From the IMG/VR virus record IMGVR_UViG_2675903289_000014: a stretch of DNA of 11,276 nt; one strand, given 5' to 3'. This document shows positions 2,735 through 11,276 of this stretch, piece after piece. The translations under genes were made by a program, and so were the position numbers. Numbering within the stretch: the stretch's first letter is position 1; the number at the start of each line of letters is the position of its first letter. The stretch comes from a virus (lineage: Duplodnaviria > Heunggongvirae > Uroviricota > Caudoviricetes). The notes under the pieces were generated by a model, which was given only the letters and a program-made list of their open reading frames with translations, searched no databases and was not told the DNA's origin.

Positions 2735-2775
2735 AAATCATCACGAGCAGATGGTAGCCATAAAACGGGTAACAT
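2735..2775 (-). CDS. parE: ParE-family toxin, N-terminal 13 codons visible (MLPVLWLPSARDD...); remainder masked
   Basis: ATG at complement of 2773-2775 overlaps the upstream antitoxin stop (TAATG), the classic toxin-antitoxin coupling. The N-terminal peptide fits the ParE/RelE N-terminal pattern. Gene length cannot be seen. Confidence 0.4.
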
Positions 2776-2969
2776 TATTCACCTCTGTGAGTTGCAGCAG
2801 CAATTTGGGCAATAATTTGTTCCATTTCCGCCATTACCTCATCATGCGGAATCGCCGGGCGGGGATCCGCGAGGCTTGCTGCTACTTTGGCCCGCAGCCA
2901 TTCGTTGTAACTATTTTCTTGCTCAACTGTCTCAAATTCTGAAACCATTGGGGAAAGGACTGTACTCAT
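2775..2969 (-). CDS. paaA: small PaaA-like antitoxin of a ParE-type three-component toxin-antitoxin system (64 aa)
   Basis: ATG at complement of 2967-2969 with SD GGAG about 9 nt upstream; stop TAA at complement of 2775-2777. Product MSTVLSPMVSEFETVEQENSYNEWLRAKVAASLADPRPAIPHDEVMAEMEQIIAQIAAATHRGE. It sits between the cI-like repressor and a ParE-like start, the organisation described for paaR-paaA-parE in E. coli O157 cryptic prophages. Identity to PaaA2 is from memory, not verified. Confidence 0.55.
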   Translation of the reverse strand: MSTVLSPMVSEFETVEQENSYNEWLRAKVAASLADPRPAIPHDEVMAEMEQIIAQIAAATHRGE

Positions 2970-4681: not shown

Positions 4682-6138
4682 NNNNNNNNNNNNNNNNNNN
4701 NNNNNNNNNNNNNNNNNNNNNNNNNNNNNNNNNNNNNNNNNNNNNNNNNNNNNNNNNNNNNNNNNNNNNNNNNNNNNNNNNNNNNNNNNNNNNNNNNNNN
4801 NNNNNNNNNNNNNNNNNNNNNNNNNNNNNNNNNNNNNNNNNNNNNNNNNNNNNNNNNNNNNNNNNNNNNNNNNNNNNNNNNNNNNNNNNNNNNNNNNNNN
4901 NNNNNNNNNNNNNNNNNNNNNNNNNNNNNNNNNNNNNNNNNNNNNNNNNNNNNNNNNNNNNNNNNNNNNNNNNNNNNNNNNNNNNNNNNNNNNNNNNNNN
5001 NNNNNNNNNNNNNNNNNNNNNNNNNNNNNNNNNNNNNNNNNNNNNNNNNNNNNNNNNNNNNNNNNNNNNNNNNNNNNNNNNNNNNNNNNNNNNNNNNNNN
5101 NNNNNNNNNNNNNNNNNNNNNNNNNNNNNNNNNNNNNNNNNNNNNNNNNNNNNNNNNNNNNNNNNNNNNNNNNNNNNNNNNNNNNNNNNNNNNNNNNNNN
5201 NNNNNNNNNNNNNNNNNNNNNNNNNNNNNNNNNNNNNNNNNNNNNNNNNNNNNNNGTGTGNNNNNNNNNNNNNNNNNNNNNNNNNNNNNNNNNNNNNNNN
5301 NNNNNNNNNNNNNNNNNNNNNNNNNNNNNNNNNNNNNNNNNNNNNNNNNNNNNNNNNNNNNNNNNNNNNNNNNNNNNNNNNNNNNNNNNNNNNNNNNNNN
5401 NNNNNNNNNNNNNNNNNNNNNNNNNNNNNNNNNNNNNNNNNNNNNNNNNNNNNNNNNNNNNNNNNNNNNNNNNNNNNNNNNNNNNNNNNNNNNNNNNNNN
5501 NNNNNNNNNNNNNNNNNNNNNNNNNNNNNNNNNNNNNNNNNNNNNNNNNNNNNNNNNNNNNNNNNNNNNNNNNNNNNNNNNNNNNNNNNNNNNNNNNNNN
5601 NNNNNNNNNNNNNNNNNNNNNNNNNNNNNNNNNNNNNNNNNNNNNNNNNNNNNNNNNNNNNNNNNNNNNNNNNNNNNNNNNNNNNNNNNNNNNNNNNNNN
5701 NNNNNNNNNNNNNNNNNNNNNNNNNNNNNNNNNNNNNNNNNNNNNNNNNNNNNNNNNNNNNNNNNNNNNNNNNNNNNNNNNNNNNNNNNCGACGGGCAAA
5801 AATACGCGCTGAGCCNNNNNNNNNNNNNNNNNNNNNNNNNNNNNNNNNNNNNNNNNNNNNNNNNNNNNNNNNNNNNNNNNNNNNNNNNNNNNNNNNNNNN
5901 NNNNNNNNNNNNNNNNNNNNNNNNNNNNNNNNNNNNNNNNNNNNNNNNNNNNNNNNNNNNNNNNNNNNNNNNNNNNNNNNNNNNNNNNNNNNNNNNNNNN
6001 NNNNNNNNNNNNNNNNNNNNNNNNNNNNNNNNNNNNNNNNNNNNNNNNNNNNNNNNNNNNNNNNNNNNNNNNNNNNNNNNNNNNNNNNNNNNNNNNNNNN
6101 NNNNNNNNNNNNNNNNNNNNNNNNNNNNNNNNNNNNNN

Positions 6139-6237
6139 AACAAACCTGAATCATGCCGCAATGAGCACGCTTCTTGGTGAGAGGATTATGGACCGCATGA
6201 CCATGAACGGTTGTCGGTGGGTGACGTTTAACTGGGA
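6139..6237 (+). CDS. possible C-terminal fragment of a replication gene (DnaC/YdaV-like helicase-loader tail); flanked by masks
   Basis: One plus frame is open across the whole unmasked island and reads ...NLNHAAMSTLLGERIMDRMTMNGCRWVTFNW. The LGER...FNW pattern resembles the C-terminal tail of DnaC/IstB-type loaders, and the position after ydaU fits ydaV in Rac. Weak evidence from a 33-codon island. Confidence 0.3.
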
Positions 6238-6327
6238 NNNNNNNNNNNNNNNNNNNNNNNNNNNNNNNNNNNNNNNNNNNNNNNNNNNNCGGGAGTTGTG
6301 AAGTAATTTTTGTTGGAGGATGTTTTA

Positions 6328-7053
6328 ATGGAAACTGTATTTGACGCACTGAAAGCACTGAAAAGAGCCTCTTCACATGTGGTGGCGTCCCGCCTTGGAA
6401 TCAGCCGTGAAGATGCGGTCAACGAACTGTGGAAACTGAAGCGCCGTGGTGAAGCGGATAACAAGGGTTCGATGTGGTGGCTGATTCAGGCTGGTGAAAG
6501 TGAACCAGTGTCACCGGTACCGAAAGTGACAGCGCAAATGCTGACTGAGGCGATTGAACAACATGGCCCACAAACGGCGGATGAGCTGGCACTGATGTTC
6601 GGGATTACCTCCCGCCGGGCGAATTCATCGCTGGCCATGGCAATCAGCAAAGGGCGTCTGATTCGCGTGAATCAGGGCGGTAAATTTCGGTACTGCATAC
6701 CGGGCGCTGATTTACCGGCAGAGCCGAAAGCCGCATCCATAGCGGAAACGGATGGTAAAGTCTTTCCTCAGCCAGCAGGTGTTGCGTTACCGGTACAGGA
6801 AGCTGCAACACAGGAAGAAATTAAAACAGAAACTGTGGCGGACATTGTGCAGTCGTTGCCATCGTTCACCGAAACGCAAGCGGATGACCTGGTTTTACCA
6901 TCGCTGCATATGGCAAACCGCGAACTGCGTCGGGCGAAAAGTCATGTCCAGAAGTGGGAGCGTGTCTGCGCCGCGTTGCGGGAGCTGAACAAGCACCGGG
7001 ATATTGTTCGACAGATTGTCGATTCCTCCGGTCGTATTGTGTCGGAAAAGTGA
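6328..7053 (+). CDS. uncharacterised protein with two tandem winged-helix-like repeats, a Pro/Ala/Glu/Thr-rich linker and a basic C-terminal helix (241 aa); possibly YdaW/DUF1627-like
   Basis: ATG 6328 with strong SD GGAGGA (6316-6321); stop TGA 7051-7053. Internal repeats [26 protein letters not shown] and [29 protein letters not shown]. Fully unmasked clean ORF. Confidence 0.7.
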
Positions 7054-7068
7054 TTGCCGGGGGCGCTT

Positions 7069-7491
7069 ATGGCAAAAGTATTTACACAGGAAGAGCGGGA
7101 AAAAATTAAGGGGCAGGTTGTTGAACTCGTACGCCAGAGTGGGCGCGAGACGTTACGACAACTGGAAGCTAAAACCGGGGCGACAAGATATTTAATAAGC
7201 GTTCTCGCCAGAGAGCTGGTTGCCAGTGGGGATGTATACAACTCTGGCTACGGGTTATTCCCGTCTGAACAGGCTCGTAAGGACTGGCAAAACGCCCGCA
7301 AAAAACTCTCGAGGGCAAAGCTGAAGAAACCATCTGTGGTTGATCCGGACCTTATCTGGTCATTACCGGACGGAGAAATACGCCGCTACGACAGACATCA
7401 GAACATAATCTGTCGCGAGTGCCGGAAGAGTGAAGTTATGCAGCGTGTACCGGCTTTCTATCAGGGTGATTTTCAGGAGGCGGTACTGTGA
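7069..7491 (+). CDS. uncharacterised small protein with wH-like N-terminal motif and basic C-terminus (140 aa)
   Basis: ATG 7069 is 15 nt after the previous stop, with a G-run upstream; stop TGA 7489-7491. Motif LRQLEAKTGATRYLISVLARELVASGDV resembles the repeats in the preceding protein. A TTG at 7054 is an alternative start. Confidence 0.6.
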   Translation: MAKVFTQEEREKIKGQVVELVRQSGRETLRQLEAKTGATRYLISVLARELVASGDVYNSGYGLFPSEQARKDWQNARKKLSRAKLKKPSVVDPDLIWSLPDGEIRRYDRHQNIICRECRKSEVMQRVPAFYQGDFQEAVL

Positions 7492-7548
7492 GTGAAATTA
7501 GCTATCAGGCTTCAATTACCGCTGGCATTCGCATCAAAGGAGAGGAGC

Positions 7549-7905
7549 ATGGAAATAAAACCAGAAGATGAGTTAAGCAATATTGTTTTATTTCCGGTAA
7601 AAGAGGATAACCCTCGTAATCAGGTTAATTTTCTTTATGAGCCATCGGAAAGACCATATTGCCATCACGCTTCTGTCCGGGTTGACGAAAAAGAGCGTCA
7701 GGTCCGCTGTAAAATCTGCGGTGCGGTTGTGGAGCCGTTTGACTGGATGCTCTCTGTGGCAAAAAGAGAAACCAGACTGGCAGATGATGTAAGGCTCTTG
7801 CGCCAGGAGGAGCGGGAAAGGCGAAAAAATATAGAAAAGCTAATCCAGATTGAGCGTAATGCGAAAGCGCGGATACGCAGGGTGACAAAATATAGCCCCG
7901 AATAA
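7549..7905 (+). CDS. uncharacterised zinc-ribbon-like protein with Arg/Lys/Glu-rich coiled-coil tail (118 aa)
   Basis: ATG 7549 with strong SD aaggagaggag (7538-7547); stop TAA 7903-7905. Product contains C-H-H-x14-C-x2-C (YCHHASVRVDEKERQVRCKICGAVVEP) followed by RLADDVRLLRQEERERRKNIEKLIQIERNAKARIRR. A GTG at 7492 is an alternative start. Confidence 0.6.
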   Translation: MEIKPEDELSNIVLFPVKEDNPRNQVNFLYEPSERPYCHHASVRVDEKERQVRCKICGAVVEPFDWMLSVAKRETRLADDVRLLRQEERERRKNIEKLIQIERNAKARIRRVTKYSPE

Positions 7906-8119
7906 TCAAGGTTATTTCTGGAAGTCAAGTCGTGAGTGATGAGGACTAACAAATACGGTGAACTCGATAAAGAGATTCAGGACGAACTGGAGGCCAGGAA
8001 TGATTGACAAATCACCAAGTGAGTTCAGCTACAAAGATTTATTGTCATAACGGGTTATGAGATCGACTTGGTGCGTGATATTCTTCGGGCCAGTTTGCTA
8101 TGCGCCACCATGAGATGTT

Positions 8120-10021
8120 ATGGCCCGCATGTTTGATACATTAGGATTTTACATTATGAATGTGCAACATTTTGATTTTTTTACAGATAATGAGTTTTCT
8201 AATCTGGAAAGATATCAAACTTGTAAAGCCATGGCCAAAGGTTATGCGGGCAATTACAAAACCGGGCAGTCAAGGTTGATGCATGCCCGCTCATACTGCT
8301 TCAGCATCGTAGCTGCATATTGGGATACCCTTGCAAAAAAGCAAAAAAGCAGCATTAAAATGAGGGCAGTACCGCACACTGTTTACATAGAAGACATTCC
8401 ATGTGATGCACGCGAGCTCGCTGAACGAACAGGTGAGCTTATTGCTCAATTTCCGGCGGAGGACGCTGGATATCTGATTGGGTCAATTTATACGGTAATG
8501 CTGCCATCCGCTTACCGTTCGGAATTGGGGGCTTACTATACCCCCCCACCTTTGGTAGCGCGTCTCTTGGACCTGGCTGAAAAGTCTGGTGTTGATTTTT
8601 CTCATGCATCGGTTATTGATCCTGCGTGTGGTGGCGGTGCATTTTTGGCACCAGTAGCCATTCGAATGTTAAAAAAAGACAAGGGGTCTTCCCCTGAATG
8701 GATGTTGAGGAGAATCAGTCGTCGTTTAAAGGGGATAGAGATCGATCCATTTGCGGCTTGGATGAGTTTGGTATTGCTCGAATCTGTACTAATGCCACTA
8801 TGTGTAAAGGTAAAACGTAGATTGCCTGAAGATACAATTATTGTTGCTGATGCGCTTCAGCAAGATAAATTTTCTGGTTATGATCTTGTGGTAGGGAATC
8901 CGCCTTACGGACGTGTCACTCTCGATATTAAAACGAGAGAAAAATATTCTCGTTCGTTATTTGGTCATGCAAATCTATATGGATTGTTCACCGACTTAGC
9001 TGTTCGCATGGTTAAAGAGAAAACAGGAGTTATTGCATTTCTTACGCCAACTTCTTTTCTTGGTGGGCAGTATTTCACCGCGCTGCGAACCCTTTTGACC
9101 GAAAAAACTACTCCNNNNNNNNNNNNNNNNNNNNNNNNNNNNNNNNNNNNNNNNNNNNNNNNNNNNNNNNNNNNNNNNNNNNNNNNNNNNNNNNNNNNNN
9201 NNNNNNNNNNNNNNNNNNNNNNNNNNNNNNNNNNNNNNNNNNNNNNNNNNNNNNNNNNNNNNNNNNNNNNNNNNNNNNNNNNNNNNNNNNNNNNNNNNNN
9301 NNNNNNNNNNNNNNNNNNNNNNNNNNNNNNNNNNNNNNNNNNNNNNNNNNNNNNNNNNNNNNNNNNNNNNNNNNNNNNNNNNNNNNNNNNNNNNNNNNNN
9401 NNNNNNNNNNNNNNNNNNNNNNNNNNNNNNNNNNNNNNNNNNNNNNNNNNNNNNNNNNNNNNNNNNNNNNNNNNNNNNNNNNNNNNNNNNNNNNNNNNNN
9501 NNNNNNNNNNNNNNNNNNNNNNNNNNNNNNNNNNNNNNNNNNNNNNNNNNNNNNNNNNNNNNNNNNNNNNNNNNNNNNNNNNNNNNNNNNNNNNNNNNNN
9601 NNNNNNNNNNNNNNNNNNNNNNNNNACAAAATCTGAATGTGTGCTTGTTCAGCGGACAACATCGAAGGAACAGGACAGAAGGATTTTAGCGGCAATTTTA
9701 CCTCAGGGATTTATAGNNNNNNNNNNNNNNNNNNNNNNNNNNNNNNNNNNNNNNNNNNNNNNNNNNNNNNNNNNNNNNNNNNNNNNNNNNNNNNNNNNNN
9801 NNNNNNNNNNNNNNNNNNNNNNNNNNNNNNNNNNNNNNNNNNNNNNNNNNNNNNNNNNNNNNNNNNNNNNNNNNNNNNNNNNNNNNNNNNNNNNNNNNNN
9901 NNNNNNNNNNNNNNNNNNNNNNNNNNNNNNNNNNNNNNNNNNNNNNNNNNNNNNNNNNNNNNNNNNNNNNNNNNNNNNNNNNNNNNNNNNNNCTGGTTTC
10001 TATGGAGTGATGATTGCATGA
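8120..10021 (+). CDS. gamma-class N6-adenine DNA methyltransferase, Eco57I/PstI-type (about 620-633 aa; target-recognition region largely masked)
   Basis: Motifs read directly: GAYYTPPPLVARLL (Eco57I-type motif X), VIDPACGGGAFL (AdoMet-binding motif I), VVGNPPYG (motif IV, NPPY indicates N6-adenine). Motif I precedes motif IV, the gamma arrangement. The frame is continuous through both masked blocks to TGA 10019-10021. Start is uncertain (ATG 8120, 8129 or 8156, none with a strong SD). Confidence 0.85.
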   Translation: MARMFDTLGFYIMNVQHFDFFTDNEFSNLERYQTCKAMAKGYAGNYKTGQSRLMHARSYCFSIVAAYWDTLAKKQKSSIKMRAVPHTVYIEDIPCDARELAERTGELIAQFPAEDAGYLIGSIYTVMLPSAYRSELGAYYTPPPLVARLLDLAEKSGVDFSHASVIDPACGGGAFLAPVAIRMLKKDKGSSPEWMLRRISRRLKGIEIDPFAAWMSLVLLESVLMPLCVKVKRRLPEDTIIVADALQQDKFSGYDLVVGNPPYGRVTLDIKTREKYSRSLFGHANLYGLFTDLAVRMVKEKTGVIAFLTPTSFLGGQYFTALRTLLTEKTTXXXXXXXXXXXXXXXXXXXXXXXXXXXXXXXXXXXXXXXXXXXXXXXXXXXXXXXXXXXXXXXXXXXXXXXXXXXXXXXXXXXXXXXXXXXXXXXXXXXXXXXXXXXXXXXXXXXXXXXXXXXXXXXXXXXXXXXXXXXXXXXXXXXXXXXXXXXXXXXXXXXXXXXXXXXTKSECVLVQRTTSKEQDRRILAAILPQGFIXXXXXXXXXXXXXXXXXXXXXXXXXXXXXXXXXXXXXXXXXXXXXXXXXXXXXXXXXXXXXXXXXXXXXXXXXXXXXXXXXXXXXXXXXXXXXGFYGVMIA

Positions 10022-11100
10022 ATCTGCCTGTTGTTCCCCCATTGAATGTTATCCGGGAAAGATTACAATTAATTTTCCCTGAAGGGACTGAGAATCGTGG
10101 ATATTTAATTCGGGAAATAGCTGCAAAAACAATTTTTGTCATGTTTTATGCTGGTGCGGTTGAGGGGCTGGGGCGATGGATAAGGCCCAGCCAGGTTGTA
10201 AGTATGGGAGATTCGCAGGCTGCTCTTACTGATGATGCGTCCAGAGAAAGCTGGGTAAAGATGACTTTCTCTAAACAAAAGATAAGGCCTGCTGATGCAT
10301 GGTATGCGGAAAATACGCGTGAGCCAATACGTGATGAAACTATAAAAAATGGCCTAATACCTTGCAATGCAATTGTTGAGCGTAAAGGTATACCCACCAC
10401 ATCCTCTCGTCCTCGTTACAGTTTGAATCGCTCTTTTGCAGCACTCTTTGATGCCGGGCTTGAAGGAGATTCGCTGCTGAGTGCAATAAGTTCCTGGCAA
10501 GAAAATCATTTGAACAAAGCCGCTCTTGCTAGGTTGCGTTTATTGAAATCAGGGGCAGTGATTGCTGCTGATGCCGTAGTCGTCACTTTCCCAAATGGAG
10601 AGAAGAGAACTTTAGCTCCGGGCCCGTCAAGTACAATAGCTAAGGCCGTCATCGAAGTTTTTGCTCCTAATTTTCTTAAGAATCCAACTGTGCTCTGGTT
10701 GTCTGAATCCGGGAATAAAGTTGTTGCTCAGGATGATGTATTGGCAAAAGCATTGGGGCTGAATATTGATGCCTCAAAAGCACTTCCAGATATTATTTTG
10801 ATTGATTTGGGAGAGGACCGAACGGGTTCGGACATGCTTGTAGTTTTCACTGAAGTAGTTGCGACAGATGGGCCTATAAACAGGGAACGAAAAGTTACTC
10901 TCACTCATTTGGCTATTGACGCTGGGTTCAGCGAGAAAAATCTTGCATTCCTTACGGCATTTATGGACAGAAGTGCTCTGCCTTTTAAAAAGGCAATACC
11001 AGAATTGGCGTGGGGATCTTATGCATGGTTTGCTTCTGAACCGGAGCACTTAATTGATCTTCGGGATGGTTATCCGGTAAAGATCAGCCAGAGAAAATGA
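10018..11100 (+). CDS. putative type II restriction endonuclease, BsuBI/PstI-like (360 aa)
   Basis: ATG 10018 overlaps the methyltransferase stop (ATGA) with GGAG about 10 nt upstream; stop TGA 11098-11100. The C-terminal region has a PD...E-type nuclease-like segment (LPDIILIDLGEDRTGSDMLVVFTEVVATDG). Family assignment rests on context (partner of an Eco57I/PstI-type methyltransferase) and size, not on a verified alignment. Confidence 0.7.
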   Translation: MNLPVVPPLNVIRERLQLIFPEGTENRGYLIREIAAKTIFVMFYAGAVEGLGRWIRPSQVVSMGDSQAALTDDASRESWVKMTFSKQKIRPADAWYAENTREPIRDETIKNGLIPCNAIVERKGIPTTSSRPRYSLNRSFAALFDAGLEGDSLLSAISSWQENHLNKAALARLRLLKSGAVIAADAVVVTFPNGEKRTLAPGPSSTIAKAVIEVFAPNFLKNPTVLWLSESGNKVVAQDDVLAKALGLNIDASKALPDIILIDLGEDRTGSDMLVVFTEVVATDGPINRERKVTLTHLAIDAGFSEKNLAFLTAFMDRSALPFKKAIPELAWGSYAWFASEPEHLIDLRDGYPVKISQRK

Positions 11101-11140: not shown

Positions 11141-11276
11141 TTACGGTGCACTGGATAAAAAATCGGTTTCATAGATTTGCCCACCGTGGTATACGCCTGC
11201 GATAAAAACTTTATTGTCATCAACGGCAAAAGCAATAATTGTTCTGTGGCGGGGTGATGCTGCCAACTTACTGATT
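11141..11276 (-). CDS. C-terminal 44 codons of a convergent gene, RelE/YoeB-like toxin tail (5' end beyond window)
   Basis: Minus frame open from the window edge to TAA at complement of 11141-11143; translation ...ISKLAASPRHRTIIAFAVDDNKVFIAGVYHGGQIYETDFLSSAP. The HR-(I/V)-x-A...DD...IA..YH pattern resembles RelE/YoeB-superfamily C-termini. Low-confidence family call from a fragment. Confidence 0.3.
   Translation of the reverse strand, partial: ISKLAASPRHRTIIAFAVDDNKVFIAGVYHGGQIYETDFLSSAP

Follow-up and report, generated by a model that had tools for sequence, protein, structure and literature searches.

Introduction

What kind of restriction-modification system does a prophage carry when no controller gene accompanies it, is that system active, and how would it enter an unmodified cell without destroying it? 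These questions are raised by a stretch of viral DNA of 11,276 nucleotides (hereafter, the window; IMG/VR record IMGVR_UViG_2675903289_000014, class Caudoviricetes), in which a methyltransferase gene (hereafter, the methylase) is followed by an endonuclease gene. A preliminary description of the window, drawn from its letters and its open reading frames (ORFs), had taken the two genes for a prophage-borne type II pair. We found that positions 7998–11100 very probably form a complete and active type II restriction-modification operon, which represents an uncharacterised sister clade of PstI, BsuBI and SdaI and has no controller protein (Table 1). RefSeq already lists the two genes under the names "BsuBI/PstI family type II restriction endonuclease" and "HsdM family methyltransferase", and the cassette is included in defence-system catalogues.

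Table 1. Features of the cassette and of its surroundings (window coordinates)
Feature	Position	Strand	Remarks
Upstream phage backbone genes: DUF977/Ren-like, then phrog_1621	7054–7905	+	Pfam DUF977; PHROGs 142 and 1621
Leader, presumed promoter region, travelling with the cassette	7998–8155	+	Left boundary of the mobile module
Methyltransferase, gamma-class N6-adenine, Eco57I/N6_Mtase type	8156–10021	+	RefSeq start 8120; masked at 9115–9625 and 9717–9992
ATGA overlap of methylase stop and endonuclease start	10018–10021	+	Sequence gcATGAat
Restriction endonuclease, 360 aa	10018–11100	+	N-terminal winged-helix DNA-binding domain and C-terminal PD-(D/E)XK-type domain; BsuBI/PstI/SdaI family
3' remnant of a ParE/RelE toxin gene, 37 codons	11141–11251	−	Cut by IS1; context, outside the restriction-modification system
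IS1 terminal inverted repeat	11253–11276	+	Prophage truncated 153 bp past the endonuclease stop

Results

Both genes could be assigned to families from their products. The methylase ORF was read across two N masks (8120–10021, plus strand), and Pfam was applied both to its unmasked N-terminal 331 residues and to the full protein of an identical locus, returning Eco57I (3e-13) and N6_Mtase (6e-10). The protein also matched the PADLOC model MTase_II PDLC03338 over its full length (992 bits). The motif DPACGGGAF, which binds S-adenosylmethionine (AdoMet), and the catalytic NPPYG were read in the unmasked sequence, and the identification of the methylase from its motifs in the preliminary description was thereby borne out. 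Residues D155/P156/A157/C158/G159 and N248-P249-P250-Y251 were invariant among 57 homologues. The structural model of residues 1–319 (predicted local distance difference test score, pLDDT, 89.8) had BsaXI, CamA, HsdM, DrdV, MmeI and M.TaqI as its best matches in the PDB, and the first ~125 residues (pLDDT about 95 there) were modelled as a bundle of helices that resembles the N-domains of HsdM, MmeI, DrdV and BsaXI.

The second gene product, which the preliminary description considered recognisable only by its context, was identified directly. Its Pfam domains BsuBI_PstI_RE_N (1.2e-30) and BsuBI_PstI_RE (9.3e-45), the PF17728 and PF06616 pair, reached 106.6 and 152.2 bits (cut-off 27) and covered positions 2–136 of 140 and 2–152 of 154 of their models, and full-length PADLOC models were found for both proteins of the pair (for the endonuclease, REase_II PDLC03589, 426 bits). 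In the PDB, SdaI (2ixs) was the only significant match, by sequence (1.8e-16) as well as by predicted fold (1.9e-16). Residues P257-D258, E279 and A282 were invariant in 58 homologues, and D258 and E279 align with D233 and E248 of SdaI (numbering counted along the alignment), which presumably form the SdaI catalytic triad together with K251. The product thus has both a family match and a model matching a nuclease of known structure. The two genes are separate, adjacent and on the same strand, as in a type II system, and the order proposed earlier, methylase first and BsuBI/PstI-family endonuclease second, agrees with the Pfam matches, which are those that a protein search was expected to give.

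Outside its N runs, the window is 100% identical to a chromosomal locus of Shigella sonnei (L003, CP104423.1). The ten N runs (431–772, 871–1079, 1197–1271, 1931–2734, 4682–5255, 5261–5789, 5816–6138, 6238–6289, 9115–9625 and 9717–9992) make up about a third of the window, and where they could be compared with L003 they exceed the sequence that they hide (209 vs 199, 52 vs 26, 511 vs 457 and 276 vs 261 nt), so that ORF lengths read through the masks are inflated. A 633-aa methylase with in-frame insertions in its recognition domain was accordingly discarded as an artefact of overlong masks; the true length in 10 loci encoding an identical endonuclease is 610 aa (from 8120) or 598 aa (from 8156). 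Judging from aligned homologues, the ATG at 8156 is the likelier start, because the homologue in Serratia lacks an ATG at the place of 8120 and does not continue the frame there (upstream alignment of four phage contexts, described below), because ATG 8156 and an AGGA nine bases before it are conserved across these contexts, and because homologue alignments begin at about residue 13 of the methylase. Some gene callers also pick the 598-aa form.

The methylase contains a run of seven C at 8541–8547 (Thr-Pro-Pro-Pro codons before the AdoMet-binding motif), which is a potential slippage site. In one S. sonnei assembly (L005), which has 7 gap positions over 21 kb, a 1-nt deletion in this run splits the methylase; we did not accept the split as real, the loss being most likely a (long-read) sequencing error.

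We then considered how the cassette is distributed. The exact 360-aa endonuclease is indexed in 4192 blocks of an assembly collection, with source names that are overwhelmingly S. sonnei, and this exact sequence stands on at least 1000 contigs; the cassette is present in 2 of 5426 complete E. coli genomes. According to a published survey, 994 S. sonnei genomes contain 982 type II systems, and the species is "highly uniform" (PMC13293514). From this prevalence, we infer that the surveyed system is the cassette described here. In the literature, we found no S. sonnei methylome, named enzyme or biochemical data for the system.

Evidence for activity comes from published transposon-directed sequencing of insertion sites (TraDIS) of S. 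sonnei 53G (PMC13098226), as far as the rows listed in its tables reach. In Table S1 of that study, each replicate shows a single insertion site in the methylase gene SSON53G_RS09155 (1833 bp), whose insertion index is 0.0006 and whose reads total 147, against indices of 0.006–0.013 for its small neighbours, and in the starvation table its log counts per million (logCPM) of 1.903 is that of the essential gene ribF. The neighbours of this methylase, a hypothetical gene of 357 bp and a DUF977 gene of 423 bp, stand in the same order as in the window. The rows listed take in every chromosomal gene with 571 reads or fewer, and among them the endonuclease was found neither by the texts "restriction endonuclease" and "BsuBI" nor by the tag SSON53G_RS09150 nor by coordinates. 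Within the reach of these rows, a methylase that is not disruptable next to an endonuclease that apparently is implies an active endonuclease, since this is the signature expected of one, and the asymmetry points to an expressed, active system rather than to regional silencing. The listed rows also speak against an orphan methyltransferase beside an unrelated gene, for which the preliminary description had allowed.

Sequence comparison among phages suggests that the cassette is a compact 3.1-kb module moving between temperate phages. Close relatives of the endonuclease (75–89% identical) were traced to contigs in Kluyvera, Citrobacter and Serratia, and E. coli FDAARGOS_943 carries the cassette at 99.9% identity in a fuller lambdoid prophage next to potC, flanked by DUF977 and a hypothetical gene on one side and by parDE, DUF968, rusA and Q on the other. 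The Kluyvera and Citrobacter prophages that carry the pair are lambdoid, and there the replication genes precede it and dinI/rusA/DUF968 or recA-like genes follow; the Serratia marcescens prophage is P2-like, and the pair occupies the cargo slot that separates the replication gene gpA from the portal gene. Nucleotide similarity among the copies starts 100–160 bp before the methylase (at ~7998 for Kluyvera and ~8052 for Citrobacter) and, among the phage copies, ends exactly at the endonuclease stop codon. The DUF977 and phrog_1621 genes are absent upstream of the Kluyvera and Serratia cassettes. The occurrence of one module in different backbones (lambdoid and P2-like) with sharp boundaries is a feature of phage morons and defence cargo.

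The term "prophage-borne" in the preliminary description is apt for the fuller prophages of E. coli, Kluyvera, Citrobacter and Serratia, but the window itself is a 9.5-kb prophage remnant with IS1 at both sides. In S. sonnei, the genes run in the order repressor, cro-like gene, ydaT, replication genes, DUF1627, DUF977, a small phage gene, methylase and endonuclease, followed by IS1 and then by the chromosomal ydfI–ydfZ genes. The cassette had also been described as richer in AT than its flanks. Computed over unmasked bases, its G+C content is indeed lower (43.8% in 8120–11100) than that directly upstream (49.8% in 5800–8119) and in the left part of the window (45–47%), although the difference is modest.

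The leader that travels with the cassette contains the block TTGGTGCGTGATATTCTT (8068–8085), whose conservation extends to the P2-like copy in Serratia. Inspection by eye shows a weak element resembling an extended −10, TGATATTCT, at 8076–8084, which Serratia does not retain. The leader RNA folds no better than shuffled sequence. At the left edge of the shared cassette lies an inverted repeat, TCATAAC-GG-GTTATGA (8045–8060). Kluyvera has the identical repeat and Citrobacter half of it, the homology there starting within the repeat; Serratia lacks it. The repeat could be an operator or a recombination joint. No terminator was found in the window; Kluyvera and Citrobacter have strong terminator hairpins ~80–125 bp past the endonuclease, outside the shared sequence.

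The wider clade was sampled as 80 loci with endonucleases 47–70% identical to that of the window, obtained from a scan of one genome per species; most of their hosts are Alpha-, Beta- or Gammaproteobacteria, and a few belong to other phyla. In 78 of the loci, the endonuclease is immediately preceded, on the same strand, by a homologous methylase of ~590–610 aa. The junction of the two genes, read correctly in the preliminary description, has a methylase TGA and an endonuclease ATG that share 4 bp, with a GGAG 10 nt upstream of the ATG that sits inside the conserved C-terminal Tyr-Gly codons of the methylase. Among the relatives, 76 could be scored for the junction, and an in-frame NTGA overlap is kept in 62 (50 ATGA, 9 GTGA and 3 TTGA). 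Given this conservation at 47–70% protein identity, the overlap is not due to chance and is an old feature of the clade.

In line with what had been noted earlier, no C-like controller gene was found in the 214–250 bp before the methylase, which hold only ORFs of 32 aa or fewer; the genes upstream of these are phage backbone. Two candidate controllers were considered and rejected: the DUF977 gene, whose product has weak winged-helix matches, belongs to the phage backbone (PHROG 142) and is not carried along with the cassette, and a C-like controller built into the methylase N-terminal domain was ruled out by the model, a helical bundle without a helix-turn-helix (HTH). In the sampled relatives, a serine recombinase or resolvase adjoins the pair in ~29 loci (e.g., L030, 3119–3694), and an Xre-type HTH gene (HTH_3, ~109 aa), a candidate controller, stands directly before the methylase in ~12 alphaproteobacterial loci (e.g., L050, 3880–4218, and L063, 3868–4194). 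Beyond these recombinase and HTH genes, no neighbour is conserved in the other relatives. Judging from these gene neighbourhoods, the absence of a controller is the rule in the clade, not peculiar to the window copy, and the clade seems to exist in controlled and uncontrolled versions that move with different vehicles. The preliminary description had presented the missing controller as a puzzle of this copy; absence is normal for the clade, and the puzzle finds its answer in the order and overlap of the genes, both conserved, as it does in other type II systems that have no controller.

Discussion

The most likely mechanism for such an operon would be as follows. The methylase, with its HsdM-like helical N-domain, gamma-class N6-adenine core and C-terminal target-recognition domain, would protect the sites of the host, and the endonuclease, with its winged-helix recognition domain and SdaI-like nuclease domain, would cut unmodified DNA at the sites of the methylase. 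Transcription would start in the conserved leader. On entry into an unmodified cell, gene order and the 4-bp overlap would set the timing: the methylase would be transcribed and translated first and in higher yield, and the endonuclease would be made at a lower rate, either by terminating ribosomes that restart or by ribosomes that start at its own GGAG. The endonuclease would also have to accumulate and assemble on DNA before making double-strand cuts. Once the system is established, loss of the methylase would be lethal, and this would plausibly explain why the cassette stays intact while the phage around it decays. In S. sonnei, the module is fixed in a prophage fragment eroded by IS1 on both sides, and in other Proteobacteria it adjoins serine recombinases.

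A more far-reaching proposal can be put forward only tentatively, and we regard it as possible but rather doubtful: that a widespread clade, defined by a 360-aa endonuclease and a 598-aa methylase with an HsdM-like N-domain, has a target other than CTGCAG, is active and near-universal in S. sonnei, and acts there as an addiction module that preserves the IS1-bracketed fragment and as a species-wide barrier to DNA.

Several observations weigh against the reading of the cassette as an active operon of coupled genes. No consensus sigma-70 promoter passed a scan of the leader in the four contexts searched. No RNA structure hiding the endonuclease start was found, the junction folding no better than shuffled sequence (z = +1.5), and the endonuclease has its own Shine-Dalgarno sequence, so that translational coupling may be loose; the overlap from which the preliminary description deduced obligate co-expression is real, but "obligate" goes beyond it, as no RNA structure that would enforce it was found. 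The TraDIS authors' binary call for the methylase is non-essential (PMC13098226), and the endonuclease side of the TraDIS asymmetry is an absence from the rows listed rather than a row of its own. In the endonuclease, A282 occupies the position of SdaI K251. Lastly, there is no depletion of CTGCAG: when all 64 palindromic hexamers were counted with a Markov correction over ~0.9 Mb of relatives' loci and 74 cassettes, its observed-to-expected ratio (O/E) was 1.29 in the cassettes and 0.87 and 0.98 in relatives' loci and flanks.

The same counts gave no avoidance signal for ATGCAT, GTGCAC or TTGCAA in relatives' loci and cassettes. The most depleted hexamer palindrome was CTCGAG (O/E 0.24 in the 74 cassettes and 0.36 in 751 kb of alphaproteobacterial flanks, L013–L092); with no control genomes compared, this depletion may have no link to the system and be common to these bacteria in general.

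PstI and BsuBI cut CTGCAG, and SdaI cuts CCTGCAGG. For the window system, CTGCAG or a related site would be a guess from family membership, made at 25–27% identity to the characterised enzymes. The preliminary description had gone further and counted the system as a probable member of the CTGCAG-specific group of lambdoid prophages, which would make it a PstI-isospecific relative within the EcoGIII group of Shiga toxin (Stx) prophages. We consider this improbable. EcoGIII, from Stx2a prophages of E. coli O104:H4, O145 and O111, methylates and cuts CTGCAG (PMC6602927, PMC3893438). The other family members considered here, PstI, BsuBI and SdaI, cut CTGCAG or CCTGCAGG. EcoGIII resembles the window system in being prophage-borne in Escherichia, in combining an N6-adenine methylase with an endonuclease of the BsuBI/PstI Pfam family, in lacking an annotated C gene, and in placing the methylase first with a 4-bp overlap with the endonuclease (read in phage ArgO145). 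In addition, the Stx2a-phage methylase aligns with that of the window from motif IV through the recognition domain to the C-terminus (E = 7e-27), and CTGCAG is absent from the S. sonnei cassette and the unmasked window, although only 0.7 occurrences are expected in the cassette.

These likenesses are outweighed by differences in sequence, architecture and position. A tblastn search of 50,697 phage records with the endonuclease gave 97 matches, nearly all in Stx-converting phages, at ~27–28% identity over 75% of the query; the EcoGIII endonuclease itself is ~27% identical and measures ~317 aa, compared with 360 aa here. The EcoGIII methylase is 25% identical and, at 489 aa vs 598–610 aa, is 110–120 aa shorter and devoid of the N-terminal helical domain. 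Its cassette directly follows cI (cI, methylase, endonuclease in ArgO145), whereas the window cassette follows replication genes. Megablast detected no nucleotide similarity between the cassette and Stx phages, PADLOC places the window and EcoGIII lineages in separate models, and the lack of CTGCAG depletion described above does not favour a shared target. The specificity of EcoGIII has been shown experimentally; for the window system, PstI specificity would be hypothetical and drawn from its family. A P2-like phage propagated on K-12, with DNA that PstI cuts, plates more efficiently on S. sonnei than on K-12 by a factor of 10^3–10^4 (PMC6823313), which is a weak, confounded hint against strong CTGCAG restriction. 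By these comparisons, the window system is a distant sister of EcoGIII and does not belong to its group.

It could also be argued that the cassette is silent cargo of a phage early operon, expressed only after induction (to break down host or rival DNA, for instance), and that it provides no standing defence of the lysogen. The cassette does lie downstream of, and co-directional with, replication genes in all four phage contexts, and no consensus promoter of its own was detected. However, the TraDIS rows listed show that S. sonnei, with a prophage reduced to a fragment that cannot be induced, needs the methylase when it grows normally, and the 100–160-bp leader moves with the genes between unrelated phage types. 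Moreover, simultaneous first expression on induction would expose the replicating, unmethylated phage genome. We judge silent cargo to be a little less probable still than membership in the EcoGIII group, and prefer an operon that is expressed in the lysogen.

With regard to the alanine at the K251 position, the Stx2a-phage endonuclease homologue (read from the frameshifted ArgO145 copy) has Thr there, and R.EcoGIII is reported to be biochemically active (PMC3893438). With Ala in one lineage and Thr in the other, this lysine is not family-defining, and its absence is no sign of decay because an EcoGIII-type homologue lacks it as well while R.EcoGIII is active; we therefore rejected the notion of a nuclease dead for want of K251. 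An inactive endonuclease beside a solitary epigenetic methylase kept for gene regulation, for which one could cite A282 and the fact that S. sonnei is a young clone whose intact frames alone do not prove selection, is very unlikely, since A282 is invariant in the 58 homologues together with P257, D258 and E279 (not a pattern of decay), the endonuclease is intact beside the methylase in 78 of the 80 relatives, and a dispensable orphan methylase would tolerate transposon insertions, which this one, in the TraDIS rows listed, does not.

Comparison with other known systems places the operon more closely. SdaI (2IXS; CCTGCAGG), the only solved relative, shares the winged-helix recognition domain and the PD-(D/E)XK catalytic domain, but identity is ~19%, the N-terminal domain of the window enzyme is ~35 residues longer, and the global template modelling (TM) score is low (0.40–0.45), which reflects an inter-domain orientation in the model that is different or uncertain. 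With PstI and BsuBI, the system has in common the Pfam endonuclease family (PF06616 and PF17728) and a gamma-class adenine methylase with a homologous recognition domain. As these prototypes are generally described, their genes are transcribed divergently and their proteins are shorter (about 320 and 500 aa), whereas the genes of the window are in tandem and overlap.

A third comparison is with a fused methylase-endonuclease family of ~840 aa (PADLOC PDLC03359/PHROG 1639), known as the YenI type, whose domain order is the gene order seen here. The window methylase matches fusion positions 28–257 and the endonuclease positions 595–831, the difference being that the window has two polypeptides joined only by the 4-bp overlap of their genes. 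This correspondence suggests that fusion and fission across the overlap occurred in the family. Overlapping stop and start codons in a single operon without a controller are likewise found in the controller-less coupled type II systems Cfr9I and Eco29kI (see also PMC3039593), although these belong to unrelated protein families, and coupling was tested experimentally there, whereas here it is deduced.

The importance of the system is modest, and it does not challenge current understanding. It is apparently the one type II restriction system in almost every S. sonnei isolate, and knowledge of its target and activity would help to understand and get past the barriers that transformation, phage therapy and the uptake of plasmids meet in a pathogen that is increasingly drug-resistant. 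The clade has thousands of homologues across Proteobacteria, a very stable architecture and no characterised member, so that one characterisation would annotate many genomes. It also provides a natural example of a restriction-modification pair that outlives the prophage that delivered it.

Other features of the prophage remnant

The remnant is bounded by insertion sequences. The repeat at its right end (Table 1) is one that we take to be that of IS1; alignment of the window to L003 reaches 11259, and IS1 transposase genes then follow at 11291–11988. Bases 1–30 of the window are the second IS1 end, and they match three IS1 ends in L003. The flanking IS1 copies (L008, 1014–1711 and 11291–11988) are on the same strand, so that the 9.5-kb fragment is bracketed in the manner of a composite transposon. 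It carries immunity, replication and restriction-modification genes.

Two toxin-antitoxin loci were also noted. Where the window has the ParE/RelE remnant, the E. coli prophage L001 has an intact parDE (15173–15747). A gene for a PaaA2-type antitoxin lies directly beside the prophage repressor (2775–2969, minus strand), and to its left a ParE toxin gene is hidden under a mask (L003, 2668–3152), which makes a second toxin-antitoxin module in the remnant. The DUF977 gene (7054–7491) belongs to PHROG 142, "Ren-like exclusion protein", and may be another phage-exclusion gene adjoining the restriction system.

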